In this document: positions 55,715-64,000 of the stretch, piece by piece | How positions within the stretch are numbered: the stretch's first letter is position 1 | Layout: each line of letters opens with the position of its first letter | NCBI GenBank assembly: GCA_963699255.1 | Contig: OY969425.1 | Location: 6,070 to 70,069 of the forward strand | DNA: 64,000 bases | Direction of reading: 5' to 3' | Source of the DNA: an uncultured bacterium | GTDB lineage: Bacteria > Margulisbacteria > WOR-1 > CAVSGV01 | Program-made: the position numbers and the translations under genes | The notes under the pieces: generated by a model | The model's database searches: none | Seen by the model: only the letters and a program-made list of their open reading frames with translations | Told to the model about the DNA's origin: nothing

Positions 55715-56562
55715 TAGAAGAATTTTTAAGCCACCTTAAGTATGAAAGGGGATACAGCGGGAACACCGTATCTGCTTATAAGAGGGACCTTGCTCATTTT
55801 GACAGGCATTTGAGGCAGCTGAATATCAGCTCTGTAAGCAGCATCACAAGGCCCGCGATAAGTTCGTTCGTCACGGCCCTTGTGGGGATGGGGCTTGAAG
55901 CTTCAAGCATAGAAAGGCATGTTGCGGCGGTAAAATCATTTTTTGCTTATCTGGTAAGGGAAGGCAAGGTCAAGATAAACCCCACTTCTGATATAAGGCT
56001 TCCGAGAAAGAGCAAGAAACTGCCGAAAGCCCTTTCAATGAACGAGGCGAAGAGCCTGGTGGAATGCCCCAGGTCAAAAAAGGACAGGGCGATAATGGAG
56101 CTTCTTTACGCGACGGGGATAAGGGCGACGGAGCTGGTCGGCCTCACGCTGAATGATGTCAATCTGGACGTCGGCTTTATCAAATGTTTCGGCAAGGGCG
56201 GGAAAGAACGGATCGTGCCGATGGGAGGATCCGCGATCTCCGCCATTAAAGAATACATCAAGTCGGACCGTCCAAAGTCCTCAAGCGATATTTTGTTCCT
56301 GGACAGGATGGGAAAGCAGCTTACCCGCCAGGGACTCTGGTTCATCGTCAAGAAATACGTTGAATTATCGGGGGTGAGGGCGAGCGCGTCTCCCCACACC
56401 CTGAGGCATTCTTTCGCCACGCACCTTTTGGAGGGCGGCGCGGACCTGCGCTGCGTCCAGGAGATGCTGGGCCACAGCGATATTTCCACCACCCAGGTGT
56501 ATACTAGCGTAAGCAGGGAGCGGCTGAAAAAGATATATCACTCCGCTCATCCTAGGGCATAA
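55702..56562 (+). CDS. XerC/XerD-family tyrosine recombinase
   Basis: N-terminal SAM-like domain (LKYERGYSGNTVSAYKRDLAHF). C-terminal catalytic region HTLRHSFATHLLEGGADLRCVQEMLGHSDISTTQVYT has the R..H..R..Y residues. Confidence 0.85.
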   Translation: MEKIIEEFLSHLKYERGYSGNTVSAYKRDLAHFDRHLRQLNISSVSSITRPAISSFVTALVGMGLEASSIERHVAAVKSFFAYLVREGKVKINPTSDIRLPRKSKKLPKALSMNEAKSLVECPRSKKDRAIMELLYATGIRATELVGLTLNDVNLDVGFIKCFGKGGKERIVPMGGSAISAIKEYIKSDRPKSSSDILFLDRMGKQLTRQGLWFIVKKYVELSGVRASASPHTLRHSFATHLLEGGADLRCVQEMLGHSDISTTQVYTSVSRERLKKIYHSAHPRA

Positions 56563-56776
56563 CGGGTAACCATGGAACCTGAGACTAAAAGTCTCGGTTC
56601 CAAATAGAGTATGAAAATTAACCGCGAATTTTATTCGCGGGATGTTAGTTAGCTCATCCTAGGGCATAACGGGTAACCATGGAACCTGAGACTAAAAGTC
56701 TCGGTTCCAAATAGAGTATGAAAATTAACCGCGAATTTTATTCGCGGGATTTTAGTTAACTCATCCGAGGGCATAA
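56545..56776 (+). repeat. tandem direct repeat, 2 x 107 bp plus a 15-bp partial third unit; each unit has two hairpins and includes the last ~18 nt of the recombinase gene
   Basis: The unit is (gct)catcctagggcataacgggtaaccatGGAACCtGAGACtaaaaGTCTCGGTTCCaaatagagtatgaaaattaaCCGCGAATtttATTCGCGGgat(g/t)ttagtta(g/a)ct, with units at 56548-56654 and 56655-56761, then catccgagggcataa. Confidence 0.85.
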
Positions 56777-57380: not shown

Positions 57381-58562
57381 ATGAACTATCGCCGCGCGGT
57401 CGCCTATCTGGAGAGCTTTCAGAAAATGGGCATAAGGCTTGGGCTTGAAAGGATCCGCACCCTGCTTTCGCATCTCGGAGCCCCCCAGGATGCTTACAAG
57501 ATGATCCACATTGCCGGAACGAACGGAAAAGGTTCCATTGCCGCCATGCTTTCATCGATACTTAAACAGGCCGGATATAATGTAGGGCTTTACACTTCGC
57601 CGCATCTCGTCGATTACACCGAGAGGATAAGGATAAATGAGAAGGACGTCTCGAGGGAAAAATTCGCCGCGGCCGTTGAGGCGGTTAAAAAGGTCATCAA
57701 CAAGCTGCCGGAGATGGACCTTACGGAATTCGAGGTCCTGACCGCCGCATCGTTCTTGTTGTTATCCCGTGAAAAAGTTGAGATAGTCATCGTTGAGACC
57801 GGGCTTGGCGGCAGTCTTGACGCGACGAACGTAATAACCCCCATATTATCGATCATCACTAATATCGATTATGACCACATGGATGTTCTGGGCGGCACTA
57901 TAAGCAAGATAGCAAAGGAAAAGGGCGGGATCATAAAGAACCATGTCCCGCTTGTCACCGGCGAAAAAAAAGTGTGGCGGATCCTGCATAGTATATGTAA
58001 GGAAAAGAGATGCAGGTTCATCAGGTCCGTCAGGGAAAAGGTTAAATATGTCCCGTTACTGGGGAGCCATCAGGCGGAGAACACGAAGGTTGTGCTTGCC
58101 AGCGTACGGGTTTTAAGGGGTTTGGGGCTCAATATCAGCGATAAGCAGGTGGACAGAGGGCTTCGGCGCACTTTCTGGCCAGGAAGGCTTCAGGTCGTCT
58201 CAAAAAGTCCTCTGACTATCCTTGACGGGGCGCATAATCCCGCGGGAGCGAAAGCTCTGGTTGAATATCTGTCAGGATTGAAGAAGAAGTTCACTTTTGT
58301 TATCGGGATGCAGAGGAACAAGGATATTGATAGTGTTATCAAAATATTGATGCCTGTCGCGGACAGGTTCATTGTTGTAAAGTCGAGCAATCCGAATGCC
58401 GTGTCGAAAGATGTCCTTGCGAAGAAGATAGAGAGGGCAGGGGGGCTGGCGGTGATCGCGAAGGATCTGAAGGGGGCACTTTCGATGGCGAAAAAGACAG
58501 GGAATCCCGTCTGTGTCGCCGGCTCGCTTTATTTAATAGGAGATGCGTTAAAGAAGTTTTAA
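57381..58562 (+). CDS. folC: folylpolyglutamate synthase / dihydrofolate synthase
   Basis: HIAGTNGKGS P-loop, YTSPHLVDYTERI and DGAHNPAGAKAL are typical of FolC (Mur ligase family). Confidence 0.85.
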   Translation: MNYRRAVAYLESFQKMGIRLGLERIRTLLSHLGAPQDAYKMIHIAGTNGKGSIAAMLSSILKQAGYNVGLYTSPHLVDYTERIRINEKDVSREKFAAAVEAVKKVINKLPEMDLTEFEVLTAASFLLLSREKVEIVIVETGLGGSLDATNVITPILSIITNIDYDHMDVLGGTISKIAKEKGGIIKNHVPLVTGEKKVWRILHSICKEKRCRFIRSVREKVKYVPLLGSHQAENTKVVLASVRVLRGLGLNISDKQVDRGLRRTFWPGRLQVVSKSPLTILDGAHNPAGAKALVEYLSGLKKKFTFVIGMQRNKDIDSVIKILMPVADRFIVVKSSNPNAVSKDVLAKKIERAGGLAVIAKDLKGALSMAKKTGNPVCVAGSLYLIGDALKKF

Positions 58563-58801
58563 TTTGAGAAGGATTTAAAAGGTCCTTATTTAAGGAGTTG
58601 TCGGATGATGCTCGTTGCAATGGCATTTACTCTAATTCATAGGCACAGTCTGGGTAAAGAGAGTTTGAGAAGGCGAAGGAATGGAATATTAGGATTCCGA
58701 ACGAAAAAGAGTATAATGAGTTGAAATATCTTATTTTGTTAGGTGTACTAATGTGATTAGCGGAAATGAATCAACTAAAAAACGACTATTGGAGGTAAAT
58801 C

Positions 58802-60343
58802 ATGGATGTAACAGATGAAGTGTCTTTTTGGTCCAGATTAGGATTTAAGGCGAACCCTTTCCAATATACAAATGCTGACCAGGAAGATGAATTGCATAAA
58901 TATTTTGTGCCGCCTCAATATTTTCCGTCTGTATGGGGTGACCCTCAAAAACCCCAGTCTTGTGTGGTGTTTGCACCACGTGGTGGAGGCAAATCTGCAC
59001 AAAGAAGAATGATCGAAAATCAAAGTATTGGGAGTAAAGTCCTTGCACTTCAGTACACAAGGTTTGAATTTAGACCGGGTATGCGCATATCGGACATAGA
59101 TATTGAATATCATCTCAAAAACATTATTCGAATATGTTTAATCGGATTTCTTATGCAAACATATGAGAATAAAATTGGGCATATGGTTTTCAATGCAACT
59201 GAAAAGAGGCAAGTTAAGGATCTATGTAATTTTTATTTACATGATATGAATACTGAAGCGGTTTCCGCAGCTGTAAATGCGATAATGAGTCCAGCCGAAA
59301 AAGCAAAAAAATTGTTTTATGAGAACTCATGGGTTATCGGACCAATTATTCAGATTTTAGCAAAAACGTATATAGGGATAGACTTATTCCCTTTAACACT
59401 TCAAGCTGATGATACATCAATAAGAAATGTATCAAAGACGCACTTAGAGAACATATTATTACTAATTAAAAAGCTTGGTTATGATTCAGTATATGTATTA
59501 ATTGATAAAGTCGATGAAACAAGCTTAACAAGTAATAATGCACAAGCTTCCTTTGATTTGATTGCTCCAATGCTTAAGGATTTAGAATTACTACAAATGG
59601 GTAATATTGCCTTCAAATTCTTTTTGTGGGATGAAATCACTCCTTCATTTATTAAATATGCACGGCCTGACAGAATTACGGCATTTAATATGACATGGTT
59701 AGAAGCAGACTTAAAAAATATGATGACTCGGAGGCTGTGTGCTTATAGCAATAATGGTAAGCGCAATTTCGGAAATCTATTTGATGCTAAGATAGCCCCC
59801 ATAGATGTCCTTGAAGAATTGCTTTCTATTTTCTCCCAGAATTCCCCAAGAGATATGATTCGGATATGCAGGCAAATGGCTGCTGAACAATTAAAAATTA
59901 ACCCATCAGATAGCCATATAGGCATGACTGCTGCTACTGAAGGGATAAACAGATTTTGTCTTGACCGCGCGCGCGAAGTTGTTTCCACGAAGATTCTTGA
60001 AGAGCTTCAGAAAACTCACCGATTAGATTTCACTGTAAATTATGTTGCAAATGATATTTTTAAAATAGACCAAAATGCTGCAAGGGCAAAAATTACCTCA
60101 AGTTGGGTGGTAACTGGTATTATAAGGCGCATTGATGATACCCATATTAAGGGAGTAAAAAAACCAGCGCATCATTTTGCGGTTATGGATTCTAGGATTG
60201 CCAGATCAATATTCCCTGAACTAAACTTTCTGGATTTCTTAGAGAATAAAGTTCGTGAATGTAAATGCGGGGAATTTGTTCTTAGAGATTGGGATATTTC
60301 AAGCAATCAGATATGTCAAAAGTGCAAAACGCAAATGAAATAA
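58802..60343 (+). CDS. P-loop NTPase with a C-terminal zinc ribbon (513 aa), carried on a low-GC islet
   Basis: Walker A FAPRGGGKSAQRR. A candidate Walker B lies in VYVLIDKVDETS. The C-terminal motif is CKCGEFV…CQKCKTQ. The gene and its flanks (58563-60433) are visibly more AT-rich than the neighbours, with different codon usage. Confidence 0.7.
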   Translation: MDVTDEVSFWSRLGFKANPFQYTNADQEDELHKYFVPPQYFPSVWGDPQKPQSCVVFAPRGGGKSAQRRMIENQSIGSKVLALQYTRFEFRPGMRISDIDIEYHLKNIIRICLIGFLMQTYENKIGHMVFNATEKRQVKDLCNFYLHDMNTEAVSAAVNAIMSPAEKAKKLFYENSWVIGPIIQILAKTYIGIDLFPLTLQADDTSIRNVSKTHLENILLLIKKLGYDSVYVLIDKVDETSLTSNNAQASFDLIAPMLKDLELLQMGNIAFKFFLWDEITPSFIKYARPDRITAFNMTWLEADLKNMMTRRLCAYSNNGKRNFGNLFDAKIAPIDVLEELLSIFSQNSPRDMIRICRQMAAEQLKINPSDSHIGMTAATEGINRFCLDRAREVVSTKILEELQKTHRLDFTVNYVANDIFKIDQNAARAKITSSWVVTGIIRRIDDTHIKGVKKPAHHFAVMDSRIARSIFPELNFLDFLENKVRECKCGEFVLRDWDISSNQICQKCKTQMK

Positions 60344-60350
60344 TGGACAG

Positions 60351-60383
60351 GTGATTATCTATGCTAATCACTCTTCTTCTTCA
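60351..60383. terminator. hairpin between convergent genes
   Basis: GTGATTAtctatgcTAATCAC is a 7-bp stem followed by tcttcttcttc. It sits 8 nt after the 58802..60343 stop and upstream of the - strand MTase 3' end. Confidence 0.45.
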
Positions 60384-60433
60384 GGAGTGCTAGGGAGGCA
60401 GGCTAAGAATCCTTAAATATGCTCTCTAACTTG

Positions 60434-60994
60434 CTATTTCTTGATATTTATTGCCACTGACCGGCTGAACCAGATCTTAGGTTCTTCAAGAACATTAAAC
60501 CCAAGGCTTTTTATCGTTTCTATCGACTTGCTAAAGTCTTTCTTTGAAACATGGAACTTCGGCTCAACTATTAGGACTTTCCCGTCCGGCTTCAATAACG
60601 TCTTTATTTCCTTCAACAACGCCAGCTGGTCGGGGATCTCGTGAAGGACATAAAATATCAAAATAAAGTCGAACTTTTCCGTTAAGCCTAACTTGTCCTT
60701 CGGGGTTATATATAGCTCTATGTTCTTAAGGCCCGAACGCTCGATCTTTTTCTTCAGTATCTCCAGCATCCCATCCTGCAGATCAGCCGCAACCACCTTG
60801 CCGGAAGCTCCCACCATCTTCGCCATATCCATGGTGAAAAATCCCGGGCCGCAGCCAAGATCAAGCACCGTCATCCCTTCATTAATATATGGCTTTAATA
60901 TCCGCTTCGGATCATGGGCCCGCCTGCGTATCCCCATATCCAATATGCCCGAGAGTATTACCGGGCAGATTTTGTAGTTTATATCTAATTTCAT
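60434..60994 (-). CDS. class I SAM-dependent methyltransferase (UbiE/SmtA-like)
   Basis: Motif I VLDLGCGPGFFTMDMA, followed by the acidic motif VVAADL. Confidence 0.75.
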   Translation of the reverse strand: MKLDINYKICPVILSGILDMGIRRRAHDPKRILKPYINEGMTVLDLGCGPGFFTMDMAKMVGASGKVVAADLQDGMLEILKKKIERSGLKNIELYITPKDKLGLTEKFDFILIFYVLHEIPDQLALLKEIKTLLKPDGKVLIVEPKFHVSKKDFSKSIETIKSLGFNVLEEPKIWFSRSVAINIKK

Positions 60995-61181
60995 TTTTCC
61001 TTCCCGCTTTCTTTATTATATTTATCGTTCATCAGCTTGTCTATATTTCATTTGTTGAACTATTTTTCAGGTGAGAGTTAACATGGTGGAAGCTAATTTG
61101 GGCTTATCGGCAAGATCAAAACGCGTTTCTGCGCTTTAGATATACTATGGCATAGTAATAAGCCAATCAGAAACGCTTGAC

Positions 61182-61505
61182 CTTCTTTCTTTGTTACTTT
61201 CTTTGTGTCAAGACAAAGAAAGTAAGAAAGAAATGCCTTTGTGTTGTTTAGACAAAAAATGATCTTAAATGATCGAGACGAGGGGCTCTGCCCTTACGTA
61301 GAAAGTATAGTGGTTCCATTAAGATATCTCTCTCATCCCGCCCATTTTCTTTCTGCTCCTTCCTTGACTTGCCTACTCCCCCGACACAAGGTCGAGGTCG
61401 TACGGCTCAAACAGAAGGCCTAACAATGAAACCCCCTCTGTATCTCCCCCTTACTAAGGGGGAGAAGTCTTGCGCGCAAGCGTGAGACAGAGGGGGTGCA
61501 GACTT
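61182..61505. repeat. hairpin-rich ~300-bp intergenic element, copy 1, including a 22/24-bp inverted repeat at 61184-61232
   Basis: cttctttctttgttactttctttgtgtc-aa-gacaaagaaagtaagaaagaaa is a near-perfect palindrome. The core …gggctctgcccttacgtagaaagtatagtggttccattaagatatctctctcatcccgcccattttctttctgc…ggtcgaggtcgtacggctcaaacagaaggcctaacaatgaaaccccctctgtatctcccccttactaagggggagaag… is shared with 63469-63830. Confidence 0.6.
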
Positions 61506-61598
61506 ATTAAGAGGTTGACAATGGGATTTTTGGCTATTAGTATGACTGCATCGGTCTCGCAAGAGGGGTTAACCCGTTATTCTTTAAGCCATAAATAC

Positions 61599-61654: not shown

Positions 61655-61843
61655 ATGGACAACACATTGGTAAAAGATGAAAAATACGGCGGCCGGTTCG
61701 TGGCTCTGAAGAGCTTTGACGACAAAACAATACTTGTTGACGGGAAAGATCCGAAAGAAACCCTTGAAAAAGCAGCTCAAAAAGGGTTTAAAAATCCTGT
61801 AATATTCTATGTGCCGATAAAAGATATGGTTCAGATCTACTGA
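61655..61843 (+). CDS. small hypothetical protein (62 aa), DUF5678-like
   Basis: Good RBS and the promoter motif upstream. It is of the small protein type often paired with retropepsin-like proteases in uncultivated bacteria and archaea; I state this family assignment from memory only. Confidence 0.5.
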   Translation: MDNTLVKDEKYGGRFVALKSFDDKTILVDGKDPKETLEKAAQKGFKNPVIFYVPIKDMVQIY

Positions 61844-61907: not shown

Positions 61908-62251
61908 TTCCTATCGTTATAATAAATCCTCATACCAAGAAAAGCGTTTCCACTTATGGACTTGTTGACACGGGTGCGGATGAATGCGCCTTGCCCGCTA
62001 GTTTTGCCGAAATACTTGGCCATAACCTGCAACAAGGAAGCCCCAAGGAAATATCCACGGGGAATGGCATTACGATCGCATATTCGCATACTGTTTCAAT
62101 TGAAACGGATGGCTTTCATACGGAGGATGTGTTGATCGATTTTATGCCCAATTTAAGCATTCCATTGTTGGGCGTGAGAAGCTTTTTGAGTAAATTTATT
62201 CTAACGATTAACTATAAAGAGCGAACTTTTTCTCTGCAGCCAAACAACTGA
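61908..62251 (+). CDS. retropepsin-like aspartic protease (clan AA), start codon unclear
   Basis: …STYGLVDTGADECALPASFAEILG… has the D-T/S-G-A catalytic motif. The frame is open from 61908 but holds no ATG before the TTG at 61991. The 3' end overlaps pabB convergently by 44 nt. Confidence 0.55.
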
Positions 62252-63329
62252 TAAACTCCGCTTTCAGCCGGGTTTCGGCCCATTCGCCCTCCGCAGTGGA
62301 ATCCCAGATTATCCCGCCGCCTATTCCCATCTCGCAACTTTTACCTCGTACAAGTATAGTCCTGATGGGAACATTGAAATACATCCCGCCATCGGGAGAT
62401 ATGTACCCGATCGCCCCCGTGTAAACATTCCTTTCTTCCTTTTCGATCTCCCTGATGATCTCCATCGCGCGTATCTTCGGCGCGCCGGTGACCGACCCGG
62501 AAGGGAAAAGCGCGGACATCAGTCTTGAGAGCTTGATATCAGGCGGGACTTTAGCGGTGACCGTGGATGTCATCTGGAACAGAGTTTTATATGCCGTTAC
62601 CTTGAACAGGTCCCGCCACGCGATATTTCTGCCTATCCTTCCCAGGTCATTCCGCAAAAGATCCGCTATCATTATGTTCTCAGCCCTGTTCTTTCCATCA
62701 TGGAAGAACCTGCGCTTCTCGATAACATCGGATATCGCATTTTTCCCCCTGCGCCACGTGCCTTTCATCGGCTCAGTTAGAATATGCCCGCAGTTTTTCT
62801 TTATAAAACGCTCCGGGGAAAGCGACAGGACCTGGAATCCTCCCGCGTCGATGTAAGCGGGATAGGGGACAGGCTGGCGGCGTAAAAGCTCTTTGTACAG
62901 CGCGTACGGGTCGCCCTGAAGATCGAATTTATATTTTACGCAGTATGTTATCTGATAAACATCGCCGTTCGATATGTGCCGGCGGATGAGTCCGATATTG
63001 CGGGAGTAATCTTCAAATGAAATATCCGGCCTTAGATCTTTGATGCCGAAGGTCCCGGGTTTCCTCGATGTTGACTCCTGGCCACAAGCATTTTTATAAA
63101 CGCCGAAAATAAGAAGTGGGAGATCAGAAGGGATCGCTGTGTATAATTTTTCTTCAAGGCAATAGCCGGCTTCGTATGAAATGTATCCCGCCAGCCAGTA
63201 TCCGGCGGCGGAAAGATCCTCCAGCTCCTTCAGCGCGGAATGAAAATGCTGCGGATCATAACAGGCCACGATCTTTTCCGGATCGCGGAAAAAAAGCGGT
63301 TTGTTCTCAAAACTGGCCTGGACTTCCAT
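62208..63329 (-). CDS. pabB: aminodeoxychorismate synthase component I (chorismate-binding enzyme, PabB/TrpE family)
   Basis: C-terminal chorismate-binding domain has GSVTGAPKIRAMEIIREIE, RNVYTGAIGYISPDG and GIGGGIIWDSTAEGEWAETRLKA. It is short (373 aa) and lies near folC. Confidence 0.75.
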   Translation of the reverse strand: MEVQASFENKPLFFRDPEKIVACYDPQHFHSALKELEDLSAAGYWLAGYISYEAGYCLEEKLYTAIPSDLPLLIFGVYKNACGQESTSRKPGTFGIKDLRPDISFEDYSRNIGLIRRHISNGDVYQITYCVKYKFDLQGDPYALYKELLRRQPVPYPAYIDAGGFQVLSLSPERFIKKNCGHILTEPMKGTWRRGKNAISDVIEKRRFFHDGKNRAENIMIADLLRNDLGRIGRNIAWRDLFKVTAYKTLFQMTSTVTAKVPPDIKLSRLMSALFPSGSVTGAPKIRAMEIIREIEKEERNVYTGAIGYISPDGGMYFNVPIRTILVRGKSCEMGIGGGIIWDSTAEGEWAETRLKAEFISCLAAEKKFALYS

Positions 63330-63468: not shown

Positions 63469-63830
63469 GTAAAAGAAAGTGGAAAGGAAATACCTTTTAT
63501 GTAAAACAATGCAAAATGAAAACTAAAGTTATCGTGACGATGGGCTCTGCCCTTGCGTGGAAAGTATAGTGGTTCCATTAAGATATCTCTCTCATCCCGC
63601 CCATTTTCTTTCTGCAGCGAAAGAAAATGGGGGAAAAGAACGCCGACAGGGGACAAGCCCCCTGTACCCCCACGGCCTTGACTCGCCTTCTCGTCCTCAC
63701 CAAGCTCGGCCTCGTACGGCTCAGACAGAAGGCCTAATAATGAAACCCCCTCTGTATCTCCCCCTTACAAAGGGGGAGAAGTTTCGAACGCAAGCAAAAG
63801 AAAGTAAGAAGGAAAGGTATTATGTTTTTT
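63469..63830. repeat. hairpin-rich intergenic element, copy 2, with a ~50-nt insertion relative to copy 1 that creates a 13-bp perfect hairpin
   Basis: CCCATTTTCTTTCtgcagcGAAAGAAAATGGG and ACAGGGGacaagcCCCCTGT hairpins. It is flanked by aaagaaagtggaaaggaaa on the left and aaagaaagtaagaaggaaagg on the right. Confidence 0.6.
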
Positions 63831-63842
63831 TGAGTTAGAAAC

Positions 63843-63877
63843 ATGGAGCGAACTTTTTCTCTACAGCCAAGCAACAC
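63843..63877 (+). other. remnant of the 3' end of a second retropepsin-like protease gene
   Basis: atggagcgaactttttctctacagccaagcaacactag (MERTFSLQPSN…) aligns with agagcgaactttttctctgcagccaaacaactgataa (KERTFSLQPNN*) at 62214-62251. Confidence 0.4.
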
Positions 63878-64000
63878 TAGCCCAATTCTAAGATTATGAA
63901 GGCTAGGTGGCCATGATGATTACGAGCATATATAATTAATGATATGCTCCTCTAGGGTCCTTCCGATTTGATATGCGTCATTTCTTTCGATCACTTTTTT

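Follow-up and report, generated by a model that had tools for sequence, protein, structure and literature searches.

The closest described relative of the gene discussed here is DS-41, reported in the DefensePredictor study (Science 2026; PMC13092281) as clone 'AAA2', a single E. coli gene that encodes a protein of 502 amino acids (WP_033812887.1). DS-41 was cloned as a single gene and is enough by itself to protect E. coli from many unrelated phages; plating fell by about 5.3 logs with T4, 5 with Bas1, 4.7 with Candy, 3.6 with Bas63, 2.7 with Bas3, 2.5 with Bas69, 2.3 with Bas19 and 1.4 with Bas25 (Table S7; PMC13092281). It is among the broadest-acting single-gene systems of that screen. In the same study, DS-41 was placed among the remote homologues of Avs1B (HHblits probability 98.1, coverage 0.52; PMC13092281). 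The present text concerns a gene of the same family, as judged by a curated profile cut-off, in a 64,000-nucleotide stretch (the window) of contig OY969425.1 from an uncultured bacterium of the Margulisbacteria (assembly GCA_963699255.1). The gene encodes a P-loop ATPase and stands alone in an AT-rich cassette between folC and a gene for a class I S-adenosylmethionine (SAM) methyltransferase. It is probably an acquired anti-phage defence gene lodged in an integration hotspot, a judgement that does not extend to the mechanism of its product.

The assignment comes from NCBIfam (release 20). The window protein scores 394.3 bits on NF053860 (DS41_1_antiphage), an equivalog model with a curated cut-off of 370 bits, and its residues 14-463 cover positions 1-447 of the 448 in the model. 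The validated E. coli DS-41 itself scores 414.7 bits, indicating that the model is broad. There is a further match to NF047389 (P-loop ATPase, Sll1717 family; 134.3 bits over residues 20-448, cut-off 75), a broader parent family with no assigned function; Sll1717 is not mentioned in the literature searched. Pfam recognises only the N-terminal 58 residues (PF24389, ORC-CDC6-like, 31.4 bits), PHROGs returned nothing, and searches of PDB sequences with the single protein or with a profile gave nothing significant. The first-pass annotation, made from the DNA sequence, had proposed a P-loop NTPase of a phage-defence type but could attach no named system to it; the former part stands, while the system now has a name. 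Of the profile scans run, that of PADLOC, then recommended, gave no assignment, and that of NCBIfam supplied the name DS-41. Current PGAP annotation would already call the gene 'anti-phage protein'. Nothing is overturned by the present analysis.

The two proteins align collinearly over residues 13-475, from the NPF motif near the N-terminus to the winged helix, the lid included, with Walker A (GxGKS) and Walker B (LIDKxDET) in register. Both are single-gene products of similar size (502 and 513 amino acids), both score above the NF053860 cut-off, and both genes are GC-poor accessory genes: 0.361 against 0.479 in the plasmid flanks for DS-41, and 0.361 against 0.49 in the window. The full-length E. 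coli protein was recovered from an IncF conjugative plasmid, CP058102.1, where the surrounding region (82180-90645) holds ccdAB, a RES-family NAD+ phosphorylase gene, relE/parE with a CopG-family gene, and astA. The DNA of DS-41 has no match among the 5,426 complete RefSeq genomes of E. coli that were searched, and the gene is a rare accessory one.

Searched exhaustively, a set of 1.84 billion cluster representatives yielded 156 homologue clusters with E <= 1e-30 and 1,137 with E <= 1e-3. The window protein has 338 matches, the best at 56% identity, and those with named hosts are from metagenome-assembled genomes (MAGs) of Acidobacteriota and Chloroflexota. An identical protein is encoded on one 4.6-kb Logan contig. 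When 288 proteins were clustered on their cores only (residues 14-463), two groups emerged. The first (123 proteins) includes E. coli DS-41 and has no member with a predicted C-terminal zinc ribbon; the second (165 proteins, 151 of them with the ribbon) includes the window protein. Between the groups, core identity is about 0.25; inside the ribbon group it is 0.40, and inside the other 0.49. Likewise, a ribbon or Cys-rich tail is found in none of 114 full-length close relatives of E. coli DS-41, all of which have an acidic, Cys-free end as DS-41 does. The NCBIfam model stops before the C-terminal region, and the ribbon therefore splits clades within the family and does not exclude membership. 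The DS-41 clade is mainly proteobacterial, whereas the sources of the ribbon clade are environmental Acidobacteriota, Chloroflexota and candidate phyla. By the curated criterion, then, the window protein is a member of the DS-41 family, in a distinct ribbon clade.

The composition of the locus points to acquisition. Relative to the 32 other non-overlapping open reading frames (ORFs) of at least 150 amino acids in the window, with a mean GC of 0.490 (sd 0.033) and a mean GC at third codon positions (GC3) of 0.585 (sd 0.053), the ATPase gene is a strong outlier (GC 0.361, z = -3.9; GC3 0.298, z = -5.4). The drop is abrupt, as had been noted on first inspection. The convergent methyltransferase gene has a GC3 of 0.588, which is native codon usage; hence, the anomaly is limited to one gene and its spacers. 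The ORF of 513 amino acids and the identity of its two neighbours also agree with what had been read from the sequence earlier, the upstream gene product having the Mur ligase domains of FolC.

Related genomes show that the cassette is polymorphic. A comparison with the GTDB representative (L002, FolC 63% identical) revealed only that the order thiL-M20-nudix-xerD-M50-folC is conserved and that synteny breaks thereafter; it was superseded when closer relatives were located by a XerD search. The named XerD relatives, at 54-61% identity, belong to Margulisiibacteriota, WOR-1 and Saganbacteria. In three of these (L035, L036 and L037; XerD 77-80% and FolC about 71% identical), folC is followed directly by SPOR-mreB-mreC-mreD-PBP2. 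The closest relative, L034 (XerD 89%, FolC 84%), has after folC a 207-amino acid gene on the minus strand, a 278-amino acid gene on the plus strand, a remnant of the methyltransferase gene (53 C-terminal codons, 85% amino acid and 88% nucleotide identity to the window gene), a copy of a roughly 300-nucleotide element, a TPR gene and SPOR-mreB. DNA homology between the window and L034 (84%) stops at 58555, 7 nucleotides short of the folC stop, and restarts (88%) at 60437, at the methyltransferase stop codon. Between these points the window carries 1,881 bp (GC 0.363) and L034 an unrelated segment of 1,605 bp (GC 0.32), within flanks of GC 0.50. The segment mapped in this empirical way matches almost exactly the span of 58563-60433 that had been marked on composition.

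Thus, folC is syntenic in all five relatives, the ATPase gene is absent from four (L002, L035, L036 and L037), and in L034 it is replaced by other GC-poor cargo between the same flanks. The junction is an integration hotspot with exchangeable cargo, situated in the spacer between the convergent 3' ends of folC and the methyltransferase gene. The idea of a horizontally acquired, single-gene defence NTPase had been staked in advance on two comparisons, that of this position in relatives and that of the protein with family profiles. It came through both, the profile search having led to the anti-phage family NF053860 and not to a housekeeping ATPase family. In the more distant relatives, which have no insert, the methyltransferase gene too is missing after folC, and the variable region runs further to the right than had been assumed. 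The alternative cargo of L034 (L034:12786-14390) is a candidate for an uncharacterised defence pair; neither gene received a Pfam, PADLOC or NCBIfam assignment, the 278-amino acid protein showing only a weak Metallophos_2 match (E = 0.004).

The homologous genes elsewhere have a defence-like context. In seven other loci the gene is solitary, with unrelated neighbours of which none recurs. Two of the closest homologues (54% identity each) have defence or mobile genes around them: P0007 comes directly after hsdR-hsdM-hsdS and before a serine recombinase gene, and P0005 is beside two D12-class DNA methyltransferase genes. The gene is GC-poor relative to its flanks in another locus (L029, 0.364 versus 0.53), as on the E. 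coli plasmid, with a smaller gap elsewhere. The large-scale search also retrieved five proteins (P0435, P0442, P0457, P0419 and P0403) in which the core is fused to an N-terminal Ser/Thr kinase (three proteins of about 900 amino acids), to a C-terminal DUF952 or to a C-terminal EAD1. The last is described as an adaptor without enzymatic activity that brings in effectors through homotypic interaction (Kaur et al. 2020, PMC7159879); ORC/Cdc6-like cores are not discussed in that paper. Such fusions are a hallmark of conflict systems and suggest effector-coupled versions of the same switch. The family has no homologue in 50,697 phage records, and its only plasmid copies are E. coli DS-41 genes.

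The window protein was modelled with AlphaFold2 from a 69-sequence alignment (mean pLDDT 93.8, pTM 0.91). DSSP assignment on the model gives, in order, an N-terminal block, β1 with Walker A, β2, a helical insertion, β3 with Walker B, β4, R288-x-D290-R291, β5, a helical lid with S348-P-R350, a winged helix and a β-ribbon with four cysteines. Thirty-eight residues are invariant in the 69 sequences, among them K64, D238, E239, R288, R291, R311 and R350. The N-terminal block is the most conserved stretch (3.1-3.5 bits per column; invariant F20, A25, E28, L31, Y34, F35, P38, F41 and G46) and the sole part matched by PF24389, while the helical insertion of 125 residues is the least conserved, with the lowest mean information (1.95 bits). 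Both Walker motifs named in the first-pass annotation are thus present with their key residues invariant. R288 and R291, and R350 in the lid, stand at the places expected of an arginine finger and of sensor 2 in the AAA+ layout, and may fulfil these roles, judging from sequence and DSSP.

The C-terminal part was also modelled alone (pLDDT 95.6). Its Foldseek list comprises DNA-binding regulators of the winged helix-turn-helix type together with TFE-alpha/TFIIE-alpha, none of them significant (best E = 0.02). The cysteine tail that follows, likewise detected earlier, retains its four cysteines (C487, C489, C505 and C508) in 112 of 113 full-length relatives. Most relatives have the spacing CxxC-x15-18-CxxC and keep an R-D-W between the two knuckles; in the window protein the first knuckle takes the rarer form CxC. 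With two Cys knuckles, short β-strands (484-486 and 492-494, pLDDT about 95) and family-wide conservation, the tail has the features of a zinc ribbon and is predicted to be one. When PDB sequences were searched with a profile, the tail gave only sub-threshold matches, namely to the eS31/S27ae and RpoP ribbons.

For the whole protein, the best Foldseek match in the PDB is Sulfolobus solfataricus Orc1/Cdc6 bound to origin DNA (2qby_A, E = 1.7e-5). Aeropyrum pernix ORC2 (1w5t_A, E = 5.2e-4), BrxC, ORC/Cdc6 in the OCCM complex, TnsC, MalT and a plant TIR-NLR also appear. Nothing in the BFVD viral structure library scores below 1e-3. The confidently modelled architecture is that of an Orc1/Cdc6-like AAA+ core followed in turn by lid, winged helix and zinc ribbon; an enzymatic effector is not part of it. 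The features of the locus and of the protein are collected in Table 1.

Table 1. Features of the folC-methyltransferase junction and of the ATPase that it carries, in window coordinates
Feature	Position	Strand	Remarks
Variable cassette	58556..60436	.	1,881 bp, GC 0.363; edges are the folC and methyltransferase stop codons
folC, conserved left flank, outside the system	57381..58562	+	Pfam Mur_ligase_M and Mur_ligase_C; 84% amino acid identity to L034
Upstream intergenic region, AT-rich	58563..58801	+	GC 0.356; candidate promoter and Shine-Dalgarno sequence
Candidate -35 TTAGGA, weak	58689-58694	+	From sequence
Candidate -10 TATAAT, perfect	58712-58717	+	From sequence
Shine-Dalgarno GGAGG	58791-58795	+	6 nt ahead of ATG; from sequence
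DS-41-family ATPase gene, zinc-ribbon clade	58802..60343	+	ORF, 513 amino acids
N-terminal motif block, F..LGF..NPF..TNAD.E..L..YF..PPYF	58826..58954	+	Residues 9-51, ahead of the P-loop
Walker A, FAPRGGGKS	58970..58996	+	Residues 57-65; R60, G61, G63 and K64 invariant (69 sequences)
Helical insertion between β2 and β3	59099..59476	+	Residues 100-225; DSSP on model; candidate sensor surface
Walker B, VLIDKVDET	59495..59521	+	Residues 232-240; L233, D235, D238 and E239 invariant
R288-P-D290-R291, candidate arginine finger (box VII)	59663..59674	+	Between β4 and β5 (DSSP); R288, D290 and R291 invariant
S348-P-R350-D...R354, candidate sensor 2 in lid	59843..59863	+	S348, P349, R350 and R354 invariant
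Winged-helix domain	59912..60217	+	Residues 371-472; sub-domain model; common to E. coli DS-41
Predicted zinc ribbon, C487-x-C489...R495-D-W497...C505-x2-C508	60251..60331	+	Residues 484-510; four conserved Cys
Right intergenic region	60344-60433		GC 0.422
Weak AT-rich hairpin, not a credible intrinsic terminator	60351..60371	.	Terminator scan, fold shuffling
Class I SAM methyltransferase, UbiE/ArsM-like small-molecule type, right flank, outside the system	60434..60994	-	Pfam and NCBIfam

The defence reading is supported by the NF053860 match, the deviant GC3, the polymorphism of the hotspot, the contexts of the homologues, their fusions and the conserved ATPase. Several points weigh against it. 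The window protein is only some 25-26% identical to E. coli DS-41 and belongs to a separate clade; consequently, the transfer of function rests on profile and context. The C-termini also differ, the E. coli protein ending in an acidic, Cys-free tail (...PAVGFSDLSEED) and the window protein in the C-x-C...C-x2-C ribbon. PADLOC-DB 2023 has no model for it, and its single hit, PDC-M28C (E = 0.005), is marginal and affords no assignment. Neither the Pfam search nor the AlphaFold2 model reveals an enzymatic effector domain, and the structural matches of the C-terminal module that hint at DNA binding are, as mentioned above, not significant. No mechanism of DS-41 is reported in its original description (PMC13092281). 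The host belongs to an uncultured lineage with no known phages. Finally, the window shows no integrase, transposase or other mobility gene that would explain the arrival of the cassette. A tRNA scan found none, hence there is no tRNA-linked integration site, and the only direct or inverted repeats bracketing the cassette are 14-mers at chance level, with no att-like sites and no inverted terminal repeats. Cargo is possibly exchanged by homologous recombination through the conserved flanks.

How a defence protein of this architecture might act can be proposed only tentatively. The window protein would be an ATP-driven nucleotide switch with inter-subunit catalysis, for which R288/R291 would supply the finger and R350 the sensor 2. 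Nucleic acid would be bound by its winged helix and zinc ribbon, be it the DNA of the invading phage or a replication or transcription intermediate. Binding would promote ATP-dependent oligomerisation through the conserved candidate arginine finger. The oligomer might itself block replication or expression of phage DNA, or might recruit a host factor encoded elsewhere; it would not act through a built-in nuclease or NADase. Because DS-41 protects against unrelated phages, the cue is more likely to be a generic one, for example DNA that is invading or replicating, than a single phage protein.

An alternative model, which we regard as equally possible and equally doubtful, keeps the window protein in the same defence family and makes it a receptor of the STAND/Avs type. 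The helical insertion (residues 100-225) or the ribbon would sense a phage protein and trigger ATP-dependent oligomerisation and abortive infection, for instance by runaway ATP hydrolysis or by an effector recruited from elsewhere in the genome. The classification of DS-41 as a remote Avs1B homologue is in keeping with it, as are the structural matches to MalT and the plant TIR-NLR. The low conservation of the helical insertion is what would be expected of a surface engaged in an arms race, and the kinase, DUF952 and EAD1 fusions resemble sensor-effector systems. However, Pfam and the model reveal neither a repeat-type sensor domain nor an N-terminal effector, and the Avs models of PADLOC have no match. 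Moreover, the R-x-D-R motif and the SPR of the lid appear to fit an AAA+ arginine finger and sensor 2 better than a STAND protein, and the breadth of DS-41 over unrelated phage families is easier to reconcile with a generic cue. It must be noted that a 2026 survey of STAND proteins (PMC13581612) mentions neither DS-41 nor the family of the window protein.

Readings outside defence, taken jointly, are given little credence. The better of the two assumes that the gene encodes an Orc1/Cdc6-like replication initiator or maintenance ATPase, the sole survivor of a decayed mobile element, which is very unlikely. It would account for the foreign composition and for the best structural matches, which are archaeal initiators on origin DNA, together with TnsC. 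Two homologues also have neighbours that could be read in this way: one lies beside PolB-like and Cas1 genes, and another, already described, beside a serine recombinase gene. Yet the flanks have no iterons or other repeats and no other genes of an element. The gene is solitary in seven contexts and is intact, with the 38 invariant residues kept. Phage homologues are lacking, plasmid copies are confined to the DS-41 genes, and a member of the family has a demonstrated defence phenotype. The other reading, a host gene for an ATP-dependent winged-helix transcription regulator that is AT-rich by chance, is hardly credible despite the JGI name 'predicted transcriptional regulator' on some homologues and the likeness of the C-terminal fold to GntR, MarR and ArsR regulators and to TFE-alpha, given that, of the five closest genomes, four lack the gene and the fifth has other cargo in its place, that the GC3 of the gene lies 5.4 sd below that of the genome's genes, that the profile search leads to an anti-phage family, and that no target operon is conserved beside the gene.

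The neighbourhood with the PolB-like and Cas1 genes is found in two Acidiferrales MAGs (L024:7557-13340 and L025:2737-8520), where P0042 adjoins the gene of a 1002-amino acid protein with a faint DNA_pol_B_2 match and, further on, that of a 517-amino acid Cas1; the pair is casposon-like.

Returning to the acquired defence gene, a bolder version of its mechanism may be put forward, which we consider improbable. The ribbon clade would be an effector-less 'origin-recognition mimic', an Orc1/Cdc6-like AAA+ protein that loads on phage DNA or replication intermediates by means of its winged helix and zinc ribbon and halts phage replication by nothing more than ATP-locked occupancy. The folC-methyltransferase junction would then be a lineage-specific defence hotspot, in which the cargo of L034 would be a further system. 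Were this true, such occupancy would be a principle of defence unlike that of nucleases, NADases, membrane effectors or protein sensors of the STAND type.

The sequence upstream of the ATPase gene offers a Shine-Dalgarno sequence and a candidate promoter. A consensus promoter scan did not call the latter, which is therefore a lead only. Downstream, the first-pass annotation had seen a clean bidirectional terminator hairpin, a description that does not hold. The inverted repeat GTGATTA-N7-TAATCAC forms 7-8 pairs, of which only two are G-C, and TCTTCTTCTTC comes next where a T-run would be expected. A terminator scan of 58400-61200 found no sites, and shuffling the sequence of the hairpin region does not worsen its fold (z = 0.31), with 115 of 200 shuffles equalling or surpassing it. 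The methyltransferase gene on the other side has its own sigma-70-like promoter, at 61043-61015. The methyltransferase was considered as the restriction-modification partner of the ATPase and rejected; it is of the UbiE/ArsM-like class I SAM type and its codon usage is native.

To the right of the cassette, from 60597 to the window end at 64000 and beyond, the DNA is lineage-specific. The full methyltransferase gene, a DUF5678 gene (61655-61843), an ORF of 86 amino acids (61991-62251) and a chorismate-binding PabB/TrpE-like gene on the minus strand (62208-63329) are all absent from the corresponding locus of L035-L037, and the window ends before the expected SPOR-mreB. The absence there of the methyltransferase, DUF5678 and chorismate-binding genes shows that the lineage-specific stretch extends past the cassette and past the end of the window. 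A stretch of 30 nucleotides from the 3' end of the pabB-like gene (62219-62248) recurs (93%) at 63846-63875, which suggests that a second chorismate-binding gene, duplicated or paralogous, runs off the window end.

The element of roughly 300 nucleotides seen in L034 (L034:14677-14946) occurs twice in the window as an intergenic repeat (61180-61510 and 63472-63800; 82-88% identity), and the two copies flank the DUF5678/pabB-like segment. In copy 1, a very stable nested hairpin is predicted at 61431-61497 (-48 kcal/mol, z = -7.1) with no Rfam match, and a search with Rfam over the whole window found no family. The outer stem is not kept in copy 2, and the repeat is therefore not put forward as a structured RNA. 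On the other side of folC, 56545-56758 is a tandem duplication (99%) of a 107-nucleotide unit made up of the last 18 nucleotides of xerD and the xerD-M50 spacer. The unit occurs only once in L034, which makes the duplication a recent event confined to the present genome. Much of the remaining window (2498-46110) is a run of very large ORFs of 900-2904 amino acids with no NCBIfam match. The equivalent genes of relatives have TIG, CBM_11 and SLH domains, and the products are therefore probably giant S-layer-anchored surface proteins typical of the lineage.

What this locus adds to the description of DS-41 is threefold. First, the family has a large sister clade, drawn mostly from uncultured environmental phyla, with a predicted zinc ribbon in place of the acidic tail. 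Second, the modelled architecture is ORC-like and effector-less, and in some relatives this core is joined to a kinase, DUF952 or EAD1. Third, the gene occupies a precisely bounded swap site that holds different GC-poor cargo in a sister genome, and such a site is a place to seek further defence candidates.

Among known systems, the order of winged helix and zinc ribbon recalls TFE-alpha/TFIIE-alpha. This is a resemblance only, the matches (6xjf and 5gpy, E = 0.05-0.06) being weak and not significant, with no sequence similarity and an unrelated biological context. The likeness to archaeal Orc1/Cdc6 (2qby, 1w5t) goes further: AAA+ base, lid and C-terminal winged helix follow in the same order (E = 1.7e-5 to 5e-4; TM-score on the target 0.46-0.53), in agreement with the ORC-CDC6-like match of the N-terminus in Pfam. 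Nevertheless, sequence identity is only about 10%, and the window protein has in addition the 125-residue helical insertion and the ribbon. Nor are there origin repeats in the flanks, and the gene is a sporadic bacterial accessory gene and not a conserved initiator gene.

BrxC of the BREX system (9zll, 9zdx; E = 5e-4 to 2e-3) provides a precedent for an ORC/Cdc6-like AAA+ protein that serves in phage defence and has no nuclease of its own. There is no match to BrxC at the sequence level. BrxC acts within a six-gene BREX operon with PglX and PglZ, whereas the window gene is solitary, no BREX gene is found in the window between 54 and 64 kb, and the neighbouring methyltransferase is of the small-molecule type. 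With Avs (AVAST) and other bacterial STAND NTPases, the window protein has in common a core made of a P-loop switch, a helical lid and a winged helix. Unlike them, it does not show the tripartite STAND architecture of N-terminal effector, central NTPase and C-terminal repeat sensor, and its arginine finger-like motif suggests inter-subunit catalysis of the AAA+ type. It therefore differs from canonical Avs proteins, having neither effector nor repeat sensor, and from BrxC in standing outside a BREX operon, and it shares its ATPase ancestry with both.

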